Notes: generated by a model from the letters alone, not told the origin. A stretch of 64,000 bases of DNA from Bdellovibrionales bacterium (GCA_040275305.1 JBEOJY010000007.1:795-64794), one strand, 5' to 3'. Shown: positions 1,875 through 63,893, counted from the first letter of the stretch. Translations and numbers: made by a program.

Positions 1875-1901
1875 TATCTGGAAAAATCCCCCAAATACCT
1901 G

Positions 1902-1930
1902 TTGACGCAATAATCCCACTTATGATATAG
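1902..1930 (+). promoter_or_regulatory. Sigma70-like promoter driving noncoding locus 1, with ATCCCAC direct repeats 21 nt apart
   Basis: TTGACG (-35-like), a spacer of about 16 nt, then GATATA (-10-like). Two ATCCCAC boxes lie 21 nt apart. The same arrangement occurs at 62314-62345. Confidence 0.3.
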
Positions 1931-1934
1931 GTAT

Positions 1935-2200
1935 CCCACTTCTTTAGATTGAAAAATTTGAAGGAGTGCCGGAAGGACCGGCGGTCCCGTTAGCTGCAGA
2001 TATACGGGAAAAGAACCGAAGGTCCAGAAGGCGGGTAGGCCACCCTAAGCGGGGGCCGGGGCAGACAGGGAACCGGACCGTGATGGTGGAGAGCTCTCCA
2101 TACCAGAGGACAGAAGACAAAAGATAGAGATCAGAGGACGCAAAAGGAAAGAAAAGGAAAAAATGGGGAAGAAAAAAACAAACAGACACTCTACTACCTA
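1935..2200 (+). ncRNA. Candidate small RNA, copy 1: conserved core hairpins followed by a long purine/GGA-rich tail
   Basis: No plausible ORF. A conserved core (gcgggtaggccaccctaagc.ggccggggcagacaggg.accggac.gtgat) is shared with 62444-62506. Predicted hairpins include CCGG-AAGGA-CCGG and GGGT-AGGCC-ACCC, and many (A)GGA motifs are present. GC-rich hairpins follow at 2221-2268. Confidence 0.3.
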
Positions 2201-2418
2201 AGACGAAAACTTCAGTTCTTGAGGGCCGCCCTCTCCGCGTCATGCCGGACTTGATCCGGCATCCATCTGCGAGCGGCAGCGAGTAAAATAATGGCTGTTT
2301 CGCCGCTTGCGACTATAGGTGGGACTTTGATTCTTCTGCGGCGAAGATGCAGCGCAACTGAATGCCAACTTATCTACGGCATGACGTTATCGGCTTGTTT
2401 TCCCAGCTAAACTTGTGT

Positions 2419-2727
2419 CGATGCCCACGCTACCCTACACCTGAATGGCAGCTAACATATTGTTTTAGAAAAGACTCGTCATAGCCGCCAGCGTCATTCC
2501 GGCGAAAGCCGGAATCCAGCCGCGCCGCGTCTGCGGCGCGAAAGAGTCTAAAGTGCGTTCACAATCGCAGGCCGTGAATCAGTTCTGTTTCGCTCGCTGC
2601 CGCTCGCAAGCTGGATTCCGACTTTCGCCGGAATGACGCAAACGGCTTATTTTTCCTGCAATATCAATGTATCTGTCTGTAGGGTAGTATGGTCGATGCC
2701 TACGCCACGAGAGTGGGCATTGAGAAA
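2419..2727. repeat. Nested MITE: outer element with terminal inverted repeats gatgcccacgctaccctacac / gtgtagggtag...gtgggcattg, enclosing an inner palindromic element gtcattccggcgaaagccggaatccag ... ctggattccgactttcgccggaatgac
   Basis: Perfect inverted terminal repeats can be read directly. The same inner and outer families recur at 59870-60210 and 61233-61459. Confidence 0.6.
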
Positions 2728-2807: not shown

Positions 2808-3755
2808 CTACCCCGCCTTTGACGGCCCCTTCTTGCCTGAAGACGCAGGTTCATTGGCGGCCTCAGCTACCTTGGCGAGCGAAGACATCGCTCTATCTTC
2901 AACGCTTTTAATATCTTCATCGCGCTTGCGCGACGAAATTTGCTCGCCCATAAGCACGATCAAAGCGCCAGCCATGCCGAAAAGCTGCGTCGCCTCGTCT
3001 GCTGAAATCTTGCAATCTGGCGCCACCAGCGGATTGCGGTAATGCTCCTTGATTTGCGCCAACATCTGAACGGCGCGGCGATCTGGACGGACGCCGTCGC
3101 CGTCTTCCTCGACCATCGCAGTCAATTTCTTCACATAGACGGAAAAGCTGCGCTCGTTCTTCGCCAGAGGTTCCGAAGCGAAATGATCATAATATACGCG
3201 CGTCATCGCGTCGACCGCCCGCAGCATATGCATCGCCGCAGCTGTGCCAAGACCAAACGCCAAAGCGCGTCCTGCCGTCGCGAATTCTTCCTGCGATAAC
3301 TCCGGAATTACGCCCTGCAGACTGGCGGGGAAAGACTTCTGCGCATTCTCTGCAAGATCGTAAGTAGAGTAAATGCCGCGCTTGCTCGCGAGGTAAGTAG
3401 GAGCGCGGTTAAGCTCCGCCGCCAGCGCATGCTCGAACTTCTCGACCAACGCGCGAACCAGTGACAATTCCTGCGTGTCGATCCGGTCTTCTCCAGTCGG
3501 AGTCTTGATCTGCCGCGACGAAGGATCAATGAAATACCGCTCAAACACCGAACCAATCTTGTTCAGCAGCCGCTCGGCATCCTCTTTTGAAGCATCCGGA
3601 ATAAAGACAGCGCCTTTGATGAACCCGTCAAGCAATGCCTGCGCCTCGGTCAACGGCACAAACATATCCGCGACTCGCCCTTGCGCAGTTGCGGAAAACA
3701 AGCCGTGAAGCTTGGCGCCAAGTTCATAAAAACGGTAGGCATTCAGTTGTTGCAT
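2808..3755 (-). CDS. Hypothetical protein (315 aa), no recognisable domain
   Basis: A long ORF co-directional with the lipA cluster. I could not recognise any family signature. Confidence 0.45.
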   Translation of the reverse strand: MQQLNAYRFYELGAKLHGLFSATAQGRVADMFVPLTEAQALLDGFIKGAVFIPDASKEDAERLLNKIGSVFERYFIDPSSRQIKTPTGEDRIDTQELSLVRALVEKFEHALAAELNRAPTYLASKRGIYSTYDLAENAQKSFPASLQGVIPELSQEEFATAGRALAFGLGTAAAMHMLRAVDAMTRVYYDHFASEPLAKNERSFSVYVKKLTAMVEEDGDGVRPDRRAVQMLAQIKEHYRNPLVAPDCKISADEATQLFGMAGALIVLMGEQISSRKRDEDIKSVEDRAMSSLAKVAEAANEPASSGKKGPSKAG

Positions 3756-4951: not shown

Positions 4952-5413
4952 CTATGCGGCATCCCTGTAGTGATTGAAATTGATAGCCTGAACCCCAAGG
5001 CTGGTCGCTTCCAGATAAAGATCCAGATCGGAAGTCAACAATGTCCGCAACCCTTGACTGGCGCACAGTAATACAGAGTCCGTCAAACCTAGCCGTATGA
5101 AGGCTCGCTGCCCCGCAGTATCTTTGCTCTCATGGTATTCCTCGGTCACAACCTGTATCATCGCCTTAAAGAACTGGCAAATCTCCGTTCGCGCAGGATC
5201 TCCGATATACCGGATCATATTGGATGCTTCTGTCAAAGTGTTGGGCGTTACGATGACAGTCTGCGCTTCCATAATCATGGCGCAAAGAAGATCAAAATCC
5301 TTTTCCGAATATGCTGTAAGCTTTTTATGCTTGGCAATATAGGCTCTCGCCGTGCATCCAACGATATACAATATGAGAAGATTTGTATCCAAAACTATAG
5401 AATGCTTCTTCAC
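4952..5413 (-). CDS. PIN-domain protein (VapC-like ribonuclease fold)
   Basis: 153 aa with a GTG start. The N-terminal ...VLDTNLLI... and later ...LTDSVLL... and ...TSDLDLY... segments carry the acidic residues typical of PIN domains. The region is lower in GC, and the gene overlaps the upstream gene by 1 nt (TAGTG). Confidence 0.6.
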
Positions 5414-5736
5414 TACTCAAACTCTCTGCTGGTAACACTCAGTATCTTACCATCCTCGTCCTGAACGCGAATCGTTTTATAGTCTCTGCGATTGTATCGC
5501 TGTGAGCCTTGCTGCATCTGCGCAATGATACCGAGAGGATTGGCTTCCGTCACGTCCACAGGCTTATCCCACGGGCGCGAGAACCCCAAAGTCACCATCC
5601 AAACCTTGTCCTGTTCATTAAAAGTCACTTCTTCCAACCCTAAATTCGTCACGTTCTCATCGGCAAAAAGCATACCTATGTGCTTTTTGGCCAAAGAAAC
5701 CACAGATTGGACATCCATTTCTATCTCTCCTTCCAT
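5413..5736 (-). CDS. Hypothetical small protein, possible PIN partner or antitoxin, with no recognisable DNA-binding fold
   Basis: Roughly 107-110 aa ORF translationally coupled to the PIN gene. An AAGGTG ribosome-binding site sits 6 nt before the ATG at 5736. Composition is AT-rich. Confidence 0.4.
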   Translation of the reverse strand: MEGEIEMDVQSVVSLAKKHIGMLFADENVTNLGLEEVTFNEQDKVWMVTLGFSRPWDKPVDVTEANPLGIIAQMQQGSQRYNRRDYKTIRVQDEDGKILSVTSREFE

Positions 5737-5768
5737 TATGCGCACCTTAATGCACTATAGCGCAAAAT

Positions 5769-20287: not shown

Positions 20288-20380
20288 GGAGGGGTGGCCG
20301 AGTGGTTGATGGCGCTCGCCTGGAAAGCGGGTGTACGGTGTTGAATCGTACCGTGAGTTCGAATCTCATCCCCTCCGCCA
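20288..20380 (+). tRNA. tRNA-Ser (anticodon GGA) with a long variable arm and encoded CCA
   Basis: GGAGGGG/CCCCTCC acceptor stem. Anticodon loop cuGGAaa. Long extra arm. T-arm GAGTTCGAATCTC. Confidence 0.85.
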
Positions 20381-59869: not shown

Positions 59870-60210
59870 CATACCACCCTACACACTAACACATTGTTTG
59901 ATAACAAAACTTATCTTGGCCGTCCGCGTCATTCCGGCGCAAGCCGGAATCCAGCAGCGCCGCAACACATTGTTTGATAACAAAACTTATCTTGGCCGTC
60001 CGCGTCATTCCGGCGAAAGCCGGAATCCAGCCGCGCCGCGTCTGCGGCGCGAAAGACTCTCAATCGCGCTCACAATCGCAGGCCGTGAATTCGTTCTTTT
60101 CCTCCAACTGCCGCTCGCAAGCTGGCTTCCGGCTTTCGCCGGAATGACGCTGGCGGTCATAACGAATCTAGTTCTGAAGCCATGCGTTAAGGTGTAGGGT
60201 AGTGTACAAT
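59870..60210. repeat. Composite MITE with a tandemly duplicated 77-bp left half (59891-59967 and 59968-60045) of the gtcattccggcgaaagccggaatccag family, and an outer right terminal repeat gtgtagggtag
   Basis: Direct tandem repeat cacattgtttgataacaaaacttatcttggccgtccgcgtcattccggcg(c/a)aagccggaatccag, then the matching right arm ggctttcgccggaatgac at about 60130. Confidence 0.65.
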
Positions 60211-61471: not shown

Positions 61472-62275
61472 ATGAAAATCGCGACATGGAACATTAACTC
61501 CGTGCGTCTGCGCATCGGCTTGGTCGAACGCTTGCTGGACGAGGAAAAGCTCGACGTCTTGTGTCTTCAGGAAACCAAGACCCCGGACGAGTTCTTCCCG
61601 CGCGAAGCCTTTGCCGCCAAAGGCTACGTCCACCAACACATACACGGCATGAAAAGCTATAACGGCGTCGCCGTCGTCTCGCGCGTTCCATTCGAAAATC
61701 CCGGCAAGCTCTCATGGCAAGGCCGCGAGGATTGCCGCCATATCAGCGTCACGTTACCGGGCGATGTCGAATTGCACTGCTGCTACGTCCCCGCCGGAGG
61801 CGACATCCCGGACCCCGACGCAAACGCGAAATTCGCGCATAAACTAGGTTTTCTCGACGAGCAAATCGCATGGTGGAAAAAAACGAAGCAGCAGGATAAC
61901 GCGCAACCACGCCGCAAAATCCTTGTAGGCGATCTCAACATTGCGCCGCTTGAAAACGATGTCTGGTCGCACCGCCAAATGCTGGGCGTCGTGTCGCACA
62001 CGCCCATCGAGGTAGAAAAGCTCGCCGACTGGCAAAAATCCTATGACTGGCAAGACGCCCTCCGCGCCTTCGTGCCGGCGGAACAAAAGCTCTATTCGTG
62101 GTGGAGCTACCGCGCGAAGGACTGGCAAGCCTCGAACCGGGGCCGCCGCCTCGACCATGTCTGGGTCACCCCCGACCTCAAGCCGCGCCTCCGCAGCGCC
62201 AGCATCTTACGCGACGCGCGCGGCTGGTCCCCGCAACCCAGCGACCACGTTCCGGTCATAGTGGAAATATCATAG
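61472..62275 (+). CDS. xthA: Exodeoxyribonuclease III
   Basis: EEP-family motifs (WNINS, LCLQETK, SDHVPV). 267 aa. Confidence 0.9.
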   Translation: MKIATWNINSVRLRIGLVERLLDEEKLDVLCLQETKTPDEFFPREAFAAKGYVHQHIHGMKSYNGVAVVSRVPFENPGKLSWQGREDCRHISVTLPGDVELHCCYVPAGGDIPDPDANAKFAHKLGFLDEQIAWWKKTKQQDNAQPRRKILVGDLNIAPLENDVWSHRQMLGVVSHTPIEVEKLADWQKSYDWQDALRAFVPAEQKLYSWWSYRAKDWQASNRGRRLDHVWVTPDLKPRLRSASILRDARGWSPQPSDHVPVIVEIS

Positions 62276-62313
62276 AGAGAAAAATATTTTTTTGAAACAT
62301 CCCACATTTTCCC

Positions 62314-62345
62314 TTGACGTGATGATTCCCATGCGATAGAGTGAT
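62314..62345 (+). promoter_or_regulatory. Sigma70-like promoter with TCCCA(C/T) direct repeats, driving noncoding locus 2
   Basis: TTGACG, a 15-16 nt spacer, then GATAGA. ATTCCCAT and GATCCCAC boxes lie 20 nt apart, and another ATCCCAC sits upstream. The arrangement is collinear with 1902-1940. Confidence 0.3.
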
Positions 62346-62630
62346 CCCACTTTCTTTTCGAATATGTAGGAAAAGGAAGTGCTGACGAAGCCGACGGACC
62401 CGCTGACTAGCTAGCATGCGGGAGAGGAGCCGAAGGGGGAGACAGCGGGTAGGCCACCCTAAGCAGGCCGGGGCAGACAGGGTACCGGACTGTGATTGGG
62501 GAGCGCGCTCCAGATTAAGAAGGAAGAAAAGATAGATAAGAGAATATGAAAGAAAAGAAAAAAAAGAATAGAGAAGAGAGGAAAGGAAAGGAAGGAAAAG
62601 AACCGAAAGAAAATCTACTCCCAAGCTGCG
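62345..62630 (+). ncRNA. Candidate small RNA, copy 2 (paralog of 1935-2200)
   Basis: Shares the gcgggtaggccaccctaagc-ggccggggcagacaggg-accggac-gtgat core. The tail is extremely purine-rich with more than 15 GGA/AGGA motifs. No credible ORF. Confidence 0.3.
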
Positions 62631-62801: not shown

Positions 62802-63893
62802 TCATGCCTCCGGAATTAAGCTTTTCCCCTCAGGCGGTAAACCGCCGAGCCTCTGCAGCGCGACGATACGATTCTCGATTGGCGGATGCGTCGCGAACAA
62901 TCCGCCGATGTCGAAAACGGAAGGTGGGTTTTCGATAAACATCTGCCGCACTTCCGGCGGCACATCCGGAATCTCGCTTGCGCCTGAAATCTTGCGCAAT
63001 GCCGAAATCATCGCTTCCGGATCCTTCGTCAGCTCGACCGCTCCCGCATCCGCCATATACTCGCGCCGTCGCGACAAAGCGAAGCGCAGCAATATCGCCA
63101 GCACATATCCGACCGCCAGCATCACGGCGGAAATAATCATCAACAAAGCTATATTCGCCCCGCCGCGCCCTTGCCCGCGCCCATCATCGCTCCTTCCCGT
63201 TCTGCCATGCATGCCGAACTGCATGCCGCGCCACAGCATCTGCGCAAGAAACGAAATCATCCCCGTGAACACGATCGAGATAACAAGCAGCCTGCAATCC
63301 TTGTTGATGATGTGCGTAAGCTCGTGCCCCAGAACGGCCTCCAGTTCGCGCTTGTCAAGACGCTCCACCAGTCCGCGCGTCACGGTAACGGCATAGCTGG
63401 ATGCATCAAGCCCGCTCGCGAAAGCGTTCAACGCGCTCGTGTTGATTATGTGCAGCGCGGGCAACTTCATCCCGCGCGAAATGCAGAGATTCTCCAGCAG
63501 ATTGTAAAGCTCCGGAGCCTCGCGCCGCGCCAAAGGCTTCGCCCCCGTCGCCATGCGGATCATCGCGCCGTTGAAGGCATAGCCGACCATCGACCAGCAC
63601 GCGGCCACGCCCAGAACAGTCGGCCACCAAGCATAGCAAGCCGACAGCGCCAAATCCTCTGGGCCCAAGGAACCAAGTACAGGCTTGATCGACAGGGAAG
63701 AAAAGACCGATGGAGAGACGACCGAAACGCCTCGCGCCGCGTCAAGGCTCGCAAAACCAAACAAATACATCGTGCCCGCGAGCAGCGCCATCAGCAGCGC
63801 AGGAAACGCAGCAAGCATCAGCATAGACTTAAAGTCATTGCTCCAACGATAAGACGTAATGCCAAGCGTAGAAGCTGGAACTGAAGCGCCCAT
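62802..63893 (-). CDS. htpX: M48-family zinc metalloprotease HtpX-like
   Basis: HEXXH motif (GHELTHI). Multiple transmembrane segments. Confidence 0.8.
   Translation of the reverse strand: MGASVPASTLGITSYRWSNDFKSMLMLAAFPALLMALLAGTMYLFGFASLDAARGVSVVSPSVFSSLSIKPVLGSLGPEDLALSACYAWWPTVLGVAACWSMVGYAFNGAMIRMATGAKPLARREAPELYNLLENLCISRGMKLPALHIINTSALNAFASGLDASSYAVTVTRGLVERLDKRELEAVLGHELTHIINKDCRLLVISIVFTGMISFLAQMLWRGMQFGMHGRTGRSDDGRGQGRGGANIALLMIISAVMLAVGYVLAILLRFALSRRREYMADAGAVELTKDPEAMISALRKISGASEIPDVPPEVRQMFIENPPSVFDIGGLFATHPPIENRIVALQRLGGLPPEGKSLIPEA

Follow-up and report, generated by a model that had tools for sequence, protein, structure and literature searches.

A candidate family of small RNAs with a homopurine tail at two paralogous intergenic loci of an uncultured alphaproteobacterium-like genome

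What is encoded by a pair of similar, purine-rich intergenic loci that carry many GGA motifs but no believable gene? The question arises in 64,000 nucleotides (nt) of a metagenome-assembled genome (MAG) labelled 'Bdellovibrionales bacterium' (GCA_040275305.1, JBEOJY010000007.1:795-64794; this whole stretch is called the window here). A sequence-only reading of the window had offered two answers: a sponge RNA of the Csr/Rsm type, or a new small RNA (sRNA) family with its own promoter. The comparisons reported below favour the second. Each locus is likely to be an independent sRNA gene, and the two very probably represent a new, lineage-restricted sRNA family, some 260-290 nt long and unusual in its homopurine tail: promoter and 5' hairpin are kept, with covariation, in two other organisms, and the loci have neither a match in Rfam nor a credible open reading frame (ORF). 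Membership of the Csr/Rsm family is not supported.

The paralogous pair is real and non-random. Copy 1 (about 1866-2202) and copy 2 (62276-62625), both on the + strand, share 77% mean column identity in a MAFFT alignment and, as had been claimed, are collinear; the shared stretch begins about 45 nt upstream of the -35 box and runs on to where the purine tract ends. Blastn recovers a shared core of 162 nt (77% identity, E=4e-18). Copy 1 had first been placed at 1898-2270. The locus itself stands, but its limits do not, as 2215-2270 is an unrelated repeat resembling repetitive extragenic palindromic (REP) elements. Two blocks are identical in both copies, one of 20 nt (GCGGGTAGGCCACCCTAAGC; 2030-2049 in copy 1, + strand) and one of 17 nt (GGCCGGGGCAGACAGGG), and an 18-mer of the core matches the window twice where 0.02 matches are expected. 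No third copy was found in the window by blastn at word size 7 or by our covariance model R1, which scores copy 2 at 185 bits and copy 1 at 182 bits and matches nothing else there.

Related loci were reached by synteny with the closest orthologs of the GT4 glycosyltransferase (GT) whose gene (207-1874) immediately precedes copy 1. In three samples with a 79% identical GT (L011, L012 and L013), the GT stop codon is directly followed by the promoter and by the modelled RNA as far as nt 54, counted from its CCCAC motif. Two samples with a 75% identical GT (L014 and L020) carry the promoter and the first 101 nt, from a CCCGC motif, 2.3 kb downstream of the GT. R1 scores these partial orthologs at 44 bits (L011 type) and 104 bits (L014 type), both ending at a contig end. 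Within the 20-nt block, L014 has GCGGGCAGGC where the source has GCGGGTAGGC. The contigs end inside the RNA at the same base per organism (L011 4352, L012 4344 and L013 2159; L014 10063 and L020 12714); such shared ends in independent Logan assemblies would fit a branching assembly graph, as expected if a genome had more than one copy, or strain variants, of the RNA.

Each copy opens with a putative sigma-70-type promoter. TTGACG lies at 1902-1907 in copy 1 and 62314-62319 in copy 2, and the GATA(T/G)A that had been described about 16 nt further on is present in both: GATATA at 1924-1929 behind a 16-nt spacer in copy 1, and GATAGA at 62335-62340 behind a 15-nt spacer in copy 2. A consensus scan calls the copy 2 promoter as TTGACG-17-TAGAGT (TAGAGT at 62337-62342; UP-like stretch and promoter together occupy 62276-62342). 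It misses that of copy 1 (1902-1929, with GATATA/TATAGG at 1924-1931) because the last base of the -10 box is not T. In a four-way alignment of loci from three organisms (A4), TTGAC is unchanged in 4/4 loci while the spacer differs in sequence; all four have 26-27 nt between the -35 box and the CCCRC motif; and a -10-like box (TATAGG, TAGAGT, TATGAC or GATAGA) sits 16-18 nt past the -35 box. Upstream of the -35 box all four share an A/T-rich, UP-like stretch with an AWWTCC motif (1866-1901 in copy 1, + strand; A4 columns 12-47). As TTGAC and its spacing are kept while the spacer diverges, the pattern, judged on this alignment, is the phylogenetic footprint of a real sigma-70-type promoter, from which transcription would start within CCCAC.

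The same region holds ATCCCAC repeats that had been suggested as response-regulator boxes two helical turns apart. The window contains eight ATCCCAC sites (5.7 expected), 4/8 of which lie within the two promoters, at 1913 and 1933 in copy 1 and at 62299 and 62344 in copy 2, the latter pair with a degenerate ATTCCCAT between them. The two-turn spacing holds for copy 1 (20 nt) but not for copy 2 (45 nt). A regulatory role of the boxes is weakened further by the relatives, in which the spacer box is lost, and by the position of the +1 box, which forms the 5' arm of an RNA hairpin and appears as CCCGC..GCG in L014; the covariation of that hairpin (helix 1, below) favours an RNA stem over a protein-binding site. 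TATCCCAC was also considered as a DnaA box, which was rejected because the sequence has one C too many and covaries within the RNA stem.

Downstream of the promoter, the loci are predicted to fold into a multi-helix body, for which we assigned 41 pairs by hand. The 5'-terminal hairpin at the putative transcription start, helix 1 (1937-1968, + strand), has a stem of 9-14 base pairs (bp) whose nine basal pairs form in 4/4 sequences (100% paired); three of them are changed on both sides, as in CAC..GUG to CGC..GCG in L014. Helix 2 (1969-1981, + strand) is a CCGG-AAGGA-CCGG hairpin with 75% of its cells paired, kept in L014 (loop AGAAA), weak in L011 (loop GGAAA) and absent in copy 2. The central domain (1982-2045, + strand), with a conserved CCGAAGG at 2016-2022, admits two folds with about 95% of cells paired in each: fold A combines a hairpin at 1986-2009 with GGGU-AGGCC-ACCC at 2033-2045, and fold B, locally preferred by RNAfold, pairs 1985-1991 with 2030-2036. 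Its CCCG has two possible partners, a CGGG close by and the GCGGG further off in the invariant block; pairing with the latter abolishes the GGGU-AGGCC-ACCC hairpin. Both pairings are conserved and covary (1985-2045; 62398-62459; L014 10007-10063), and the two may represent a conformational two-state switch. Helix 6 (2049-2081, + strand; GC..GG-CCGG / CCGG-a-CC..GU, eight pairs) differs between the paralogs by a single G:C to A:U double change and closes on the invariant 13-nt loop GGCAGACAGGGAA. Helix 7 (2088-2099, + strand) is a perfect 12-nt palindrome, GGAGAGCTCTCC, which in copy 2 becomes GGAGCGCGCTCC, with an altered centre and the palindrome kept. The corresponding body of copy 2 (62348-62511, + strand) comprises helix 1 (62348-62381), the central domain (62395-62459), helix 6 (62463-62493) and helix 7 (62500-62511). 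The stems that had been proposed for the conserved core, GGGU-AGGCC-ACCC and CCGG..CCGG, are therefore both present, with G:C to A:U and A:U to C:G compensations.

Across the whole structure, which was derived from the same four sequences (two full-length, two partial) as those counted, 95.8% of cells are paired, against 39-46% with the partners slid; double changes fall in six pairs, against 2.2 +/- 1.2 in shuffles (2/500 shuffles reach six). Nine G-U cells would be A-C mismatches if read on the other strand. Moreover, predicted folding is stronger on the + than on the - strand in copy 1 (-69.2 kcal/mol, z -3.8, vs -56.1, z -1.5) and in copy 2 (-60.0 kcal/mol, z -1.1, vs -47.1, z +0.4). The G-U pairs and the folding energies together favour the + strand.

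Several hairpin apices are perfect palindromes with differing centres (GGAGAGCTCTCC / GGAGCGCGCTCC and CTAGCTAG / CTGGCCAG, at 2088-2099, 62500-62511, 62405-62412 and L014 10012-10019), so that their tetraloops are self-complementary (AGCU, CGCG, AGCU, GGCC). They could reflect kissing-loop dimerisation, a protein site at the DNA level, or template-switch mutation.

The loci do not look like genes for proteins or leaders of genes. The + strand ORFs measure 53 aa in copy 1 and 39 aa in copy 2, and their common part is merely the translation of the identical 20-mer; a 2-nt indel within the most conserved block breaks the common frame, and the ATGs of the tail do not align, in agreement with the earlier impression that neither locus has a believable ORF. 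Antisense ORFs of 99 and 122 aa stay open only because that strand is pyrimidine-rich, and they have no relatives among 5.8 billion clustered proteins (word-indexed search) or 1.84 billion representatives (HMMER). Copy 1 starts directly after the stop codon of the GT gene and copy 2 directly after that of xthA (61472-62275). Since the next downstream gene is convergent at both loci, namely a hypothetical gene at 2808-3755 for copy 1 and an htpX-like gene at 62802-63893 for copy 2, neither locus can be a 5' leader, as had been noted. The hypothetical neighbour proteins were compared between the loci for a shared partner and have no homology, and the only window sites complementary to the invariant loop are the loci themselves. 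With different neighbours at the two loci and convergent genes downstream, the RNA would act in trans if it acts at all.

Known RNA families likewise leave the loci unclaimed. Rfam 15 at its gathering score finds only a tRNA-Ser at 20288 in the whole window, and at E<=10 the two loci return noise only, with no match to CsrB, CsrC, RsmX, RsmY or RsmZ or to the models of alphaproteobacterial sRNAs. ARAGORN and Rfam found no match at the loci to transfer-messenger RNA (tmRNA), including the two-piece alphaproteobacterial form, and Rfam none to 6S, signal recognition particle or RNase P RNA; the possibility that the conserved part is a piece of tmRNA was thus checked and not borne out.

The 3' part of both loci is extreme in composition. 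Apart from the purine tracts that had been noted there (2100-2196 and 62512-62612), no 80-nt window on either strand of the 64 kb reaches 80% purine; the mean purine fraction of such windows is 0.486 (standard deviation 0.067). The copy 1 tail (2100-2189, + strand) is composed of 55% A, 24% G, 14% C and 7% U over 2101-2195; that of copy 2, which with its terminal TCTACTCCCAAG spans 62512-62625 on the + strand, of 63% A, 28% G, 2% C and 7% U over 62515-62612. The first 55 nt or so align between the paralogs, and the part beyond looks slippage-prone, the tails resembling simple sequence with periods of 5-14 nt. Each tail has runs of 5-6 consecutive A-R-N triplets, two or three AANAANAA and four or five pentamers like the Shine-Dalgarno (SD) sequence (AAGGA, GAGGA and similar). 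The tail of copy 1 ends in a conserved TCTACTACCTAAG (2190-2202, + strand), a possible 3' end region that corresponds to TCTACTCCCAAG (62614-62625) in copy 2. This element (UCUACUACCUAAG / UCUACUCCCAAG) resembles the 3' part of the core block, CCACCCUAAGC (2041-2050; 62455-62464), and may be a second copy of a core recognition motif. In the tail itself, selection appears to keep composition and single-strandedness.

These features can be assembled into a model of how the RNA might work. A sigma-70-type promoter (TTGACR, 16-17 nt, a -10-like box and A/T-rich sequence upstream) would start the transcript at or next to CCCAC. Its first nucleotides would form a terminal hairpin of 9-14 bp, behind which would come a GC-rich body of several helices, about 130 nt long, in which two blocks, single-stranded or in loops, are invariant (the folded part measuring about 170 nt overall), and then by some 100 nt of A/G-only sequence unable to self-fold. 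The structured body would serve as a stabilising or recognition handle, and the homopurine tail as a permanently single-stranded platform that titrates a partner in trans. A/G-only RNA lacks the U-containing context for cleavage by RNase E, and the tail, being poor in U, would therefore be poor in RNase E sites. In an alphaproteobacterium, the likeliest partner would be Hfq, engaged through its distal (A-R-N) face as it is by CrcZ. We hold this reading as a whole, an independent sRNA gene whose product is a handle-plus-platform decoy with Hfq as its likeliest partner, only tentatively; the titration role of the tail taken by itself is equally tentative, and the identification of Hfq, drawn by analogy, is doubtful. 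A broader proposal seems somewhat unlikely: a structured handle, possibly a two-state switch, joined to a long, obligatorily single-stranded homopurine tail would make up a new architectural class of bacterial riboregulator, a high-capacity sponge for Hfq, CU-rich anti-SD sRNAs or 30S subunits, in which palindromic loops might self-associate and whose host may be Micavibrio-like and predatory.

Several observations weigh against this model. No hfq gene was found in the window or in 169 kb from relatives (tblastn and a motif search), where csrA and ProQ genes were looked for and not found either. GGA, ANGGA, AANAANAA, A-R-N runs and SD-like pentamers in the tail show no excess over mononucleotide shuffles, and because these motifs are no commoner than in shuffles, composition alone identifies no partner. 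From the tail to the next gene, the + strand has no intrinsic terminator except a weak, chance-level candidate at 2303-2322; typical Hfq-binding sRNAs have a U-tailed terminator, and these loci have none. The covariation comes from four sequences, two of them partial, and the structure was drawn from the sequences in which it was counted. Finally, the two mutually exclusive central folds fit equally well.

Other explanations of the same features survive less well. The first shares the idea of a decoy but replaces the protein partner with RNA: the SD-like tail would pair with CU-rich anti-SD-type sRNAs or with the 3' end of 16S rRNA, and so sponge sRNAs or 30S subunits. Alphaproteobacteria do have sRNAs with CCUCC-type anti-SD loops, and each tail offers its four or five SD-like pentamers in unpaired sequence. 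These motifs are not above composition, however, and the window has no CCUCCUCCC-type sRNA and no Rfam match to ar14/cuckoo. We regard such an RNA-RNA decoy as unlikely.

The GGA motifs invite comparison with sponges for CsrA, in which GGA in body and tail would sequester a CsrA-family protein. Alphaproteobacteria rarely have CsrA. Each RNA contains 12-13 GGA, and the invariant 13-nt loop GGCAGACAGGGWA contains ACAGGGA, which corresponds to the ACA-R-GGA core of the CsrA site defined by in vitro selection (SELEX), RUACARGGAUGU (PMC7652899); this is the one feature that still fits CsrA. CsrB has 18-22 GGA, 22 according to the review PMC7652899, mostly in the loops of short hairpins. In the loci studied here, GGA occurs in predicted hairpin loops only in helix 6 of both copies and in the CCGG-AAGGA-CCGG hairpin of copy 1, and the latter is not conserved, its loop having become AGAAA in L014 and, in L011, GGAAA, while no such hairpin forms in copy 2. 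Almost without pyrimidines, the tail cannot present GGA in hairpin loops, and its five GGA per copy, like its ANGGA motifs, equal the expectation from composition. A regular-expression search of the 240 nt upstream of each copy found no GacA/UvrY box (TGTAAG-N6-CTTACA). Together with the lack of a terminator, of an Rfam match even at E<=10 and of a csrA gene in the window or the 169 kb from relatives, these data disfavour the sponge half of the sequence-only reading; a CsrA-binding function is unlikely, and a CsrA/RsmA-titrating sRNA is slightly less probable still than the RNA-RNA decoy.

The loci might instead act in cis, at the level of DNA, if the purine transcript formed a stable R-loop or read antisense into the convergent gene as a transcription barrier or regulator. 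Hybrids of purine RNA with pyrimidine DNA are unusually stable; neither copy has a terminator, and each has a convergent gene ahead of it. Yet the downstream genes are mutually unrelated, about 180-600 nt of REP-like hairpins separate the tail from the next gene, and an R-loop needs no conserved, covarying structured body of 170 nt. We consider this improbable.

No more probable is the view that the loci are functionless relics, either of a duplicated promoter plus leader or of a mobile element resembling miniature inverted-repeat transposable elements (MITEs), with the tract grown by replication slippage. The periodic, simple-sequence look of the tails would suit it, as would the distribution of the element. 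It is absent within 10 kb of the syntenic site in relatives whose GT is at most 66% identical and downstream of xthA in five relatives. Scans for exact motifs gave nothing but chance matches. GGGTAGGCCACCCTAAGC gave two chance matches in JGI metagenomes (a telomere-like repeat and a coding sequence), and GGTAGGCCACC-N6-21-GGCAGACAGGG gave three in GTDB species representatives, all inside coding sequences, and none in IMG/VR, where a degenerate pattern gave 32 chance matches, 0/32 confirmed by R1. Such exact patterns are too strict, because the L014 ortholog has GGGCAGGC, so that the family may extend beyond what these scans indicate; in these data it is seen only in what appears to be a narrow lineage of uncultured alphaproteobacteria. 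Against a relic stand the low copy number (two in 64 kb, and none elsewhere by R1 in 169 kb from relatives and a further 298 kb), the absence of terminal inverted repeats at the loci, the promoter and hairpins kept with compensatory changes across three organisms, and the 20- and 17-nt blocks that are identical within paralogs otherwise 77% identical. The specific possibility of a MITE, raised at the outset, was accordingly not borne out, the two copies having promoters of their own.

A small Lys/Glu-rich protein translated from the tail is very improbable, for although ATGs at 2164 (12 codons) and 62546 (74 codons) are preceded by SD-like purines, these starts are unaligned and the products of 12 and 74 aa share neither frame nor stop.

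The surroundings of both loci encode housekeeping proteins. Copy 1 lies in the order GT4 glycosyltransferase (+), RNA (+), REP-like repeats, hypothetical gene (-), lipA (-), lpdA (-), and copy 2 in the order pepA, lptF/G, lolA, xthA (+), RNA (+), M48/HtpX-like protease (-). Between lipA and lpdA (4952-5745, - strand) lie two small ORFs of 153 and 110 aa without Pfam matches, the second overlapping the start of the first, in a pyruvate dehydrogenase/lipoate cluster that is otherwise conserved. The window has a GC content of 54.8%. Despite the label of the MAG, its proteins are nearest to those of Alphaproteobacteria MAGs, and the close matches of the xthA product, which is 100% identical to a protein of the MAG, are otherwise all labelled Alphaproteobacteria (the nearest at 77% identity). 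In NCBI taxonomy, Micavibrio, an alphaproteobacterial predator, stands under Bdellovibrionales; it is therefore probable that the label points to a Micavibrio-like lineage and that the host is a Micavibrio-like alphaproteobacterium. A literature search on Micavibrio sRNAs found nothing relevant.

Two families of short repeats also occur in the window. The REP/MITE-like intergenic repeat GTCATTCCGGCGAAAGCCGGAATC has five copies, partly in inverted pairs (0 expected by chance), at 2493-2516, 2614-2637(-), 59928-59951, 60004-60027 and 60125-60148(-), and 59888-60039 is a tandem 76-nt duplication. One GTCATTCCGGCGAAAGCCGGAATC pair lies just downstream of copy 1 and accounts for the right-hand part of the coordinates first given to it. 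The second repeat, CGTCAT(T/C)GCGAG, occurs at 13 sites where chance predicts 0.6, and most of them form inverted pairs separated by about 90-130 nt (7277/7387, 9371/9458, 21430/21556, 51668, 54255/54386, 54542/54647 and 62692/62721); two direct copies lie just downstream of copy 2.

If expressed, these RNAs would give a little-known, uncultured branch of Alphaproteobacteria a further sRNA family and provide a rare bacterial case of a long homopurine RNA segment kept by selection in two paralogs. The tail would lend itself to testing how an RNA can recruit Hfq-like chaperones, ribosomes or CU-rich RNAs simply by being single-stranded and rich in purines. A more general lesson is that GGA counts in a purine-rich tract do not by themselves indicate a CsrA sponge. 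With an uncultured host and so narrow a family, the impact for now is modest.

How, then, do the loci compare with known systems? They share with the REP/MITE-like repeats of the same genome that they are repeated and intergenic, and one such repeat adjoins each RNA copy downstream; those repeats, however, are short inverted pairs present in 5 to at least 13 copies in the window, whereas the RNA loci have two copies, promoters, syntenic orthologs and no terminal inverted repeats. Like the alphaproteobacterial sRNAs of Rfam (ar7, ar9, ar14, ar15, ar35, ar45, AbcR, BjrC and others), they are short and intergenic, with a sigma-70 promoter and stem-loops. None of those families matches them, however, and those sRNAs end in intrinsic terminators; we know of none with a homopurine tail of about 100 nt. 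With CsrB, CsrC and RsmX/Y/Z the loci share the character of a candidate non-coding RNA with its own promoter, many GGA and a conserved ACAGGGA loop. They differ in placing only one or two GGA in hairpin loops, one of them not conserved, and in having no covariance-model match, GacA box or terminator at the loci and no csrA in the window. The remaining comparison is with the Hfq-titrating CrcZ and CrcY of Pseudomonas and Azotobacter, to which the loci have no sequence or covariance-model similarity. The promoter here is of sigma-70 type, as opposed to sigma-54/CbrB-dependent, and no sigma-54 box (TGGCA-N7-TGC) lies upstream of the copies. A and G form one continuous tract of 100 nt, as opposed to discrete motifs between hairpins, no terminator follows, and the A-rich motifs of the loci are not above composition. 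CrcZ, of 407 nt, has six A-rich stretches; six A-R-N triplets fill the distal face of one Hfq hexamer, and it is in this way that CrcZ titrates Hfq (PMC4063720). Any likeness would lie in this mode of binding, in that the Hfq distal face could take up the unpaired A-rich stretches of both loci in its A-R-N pockets.

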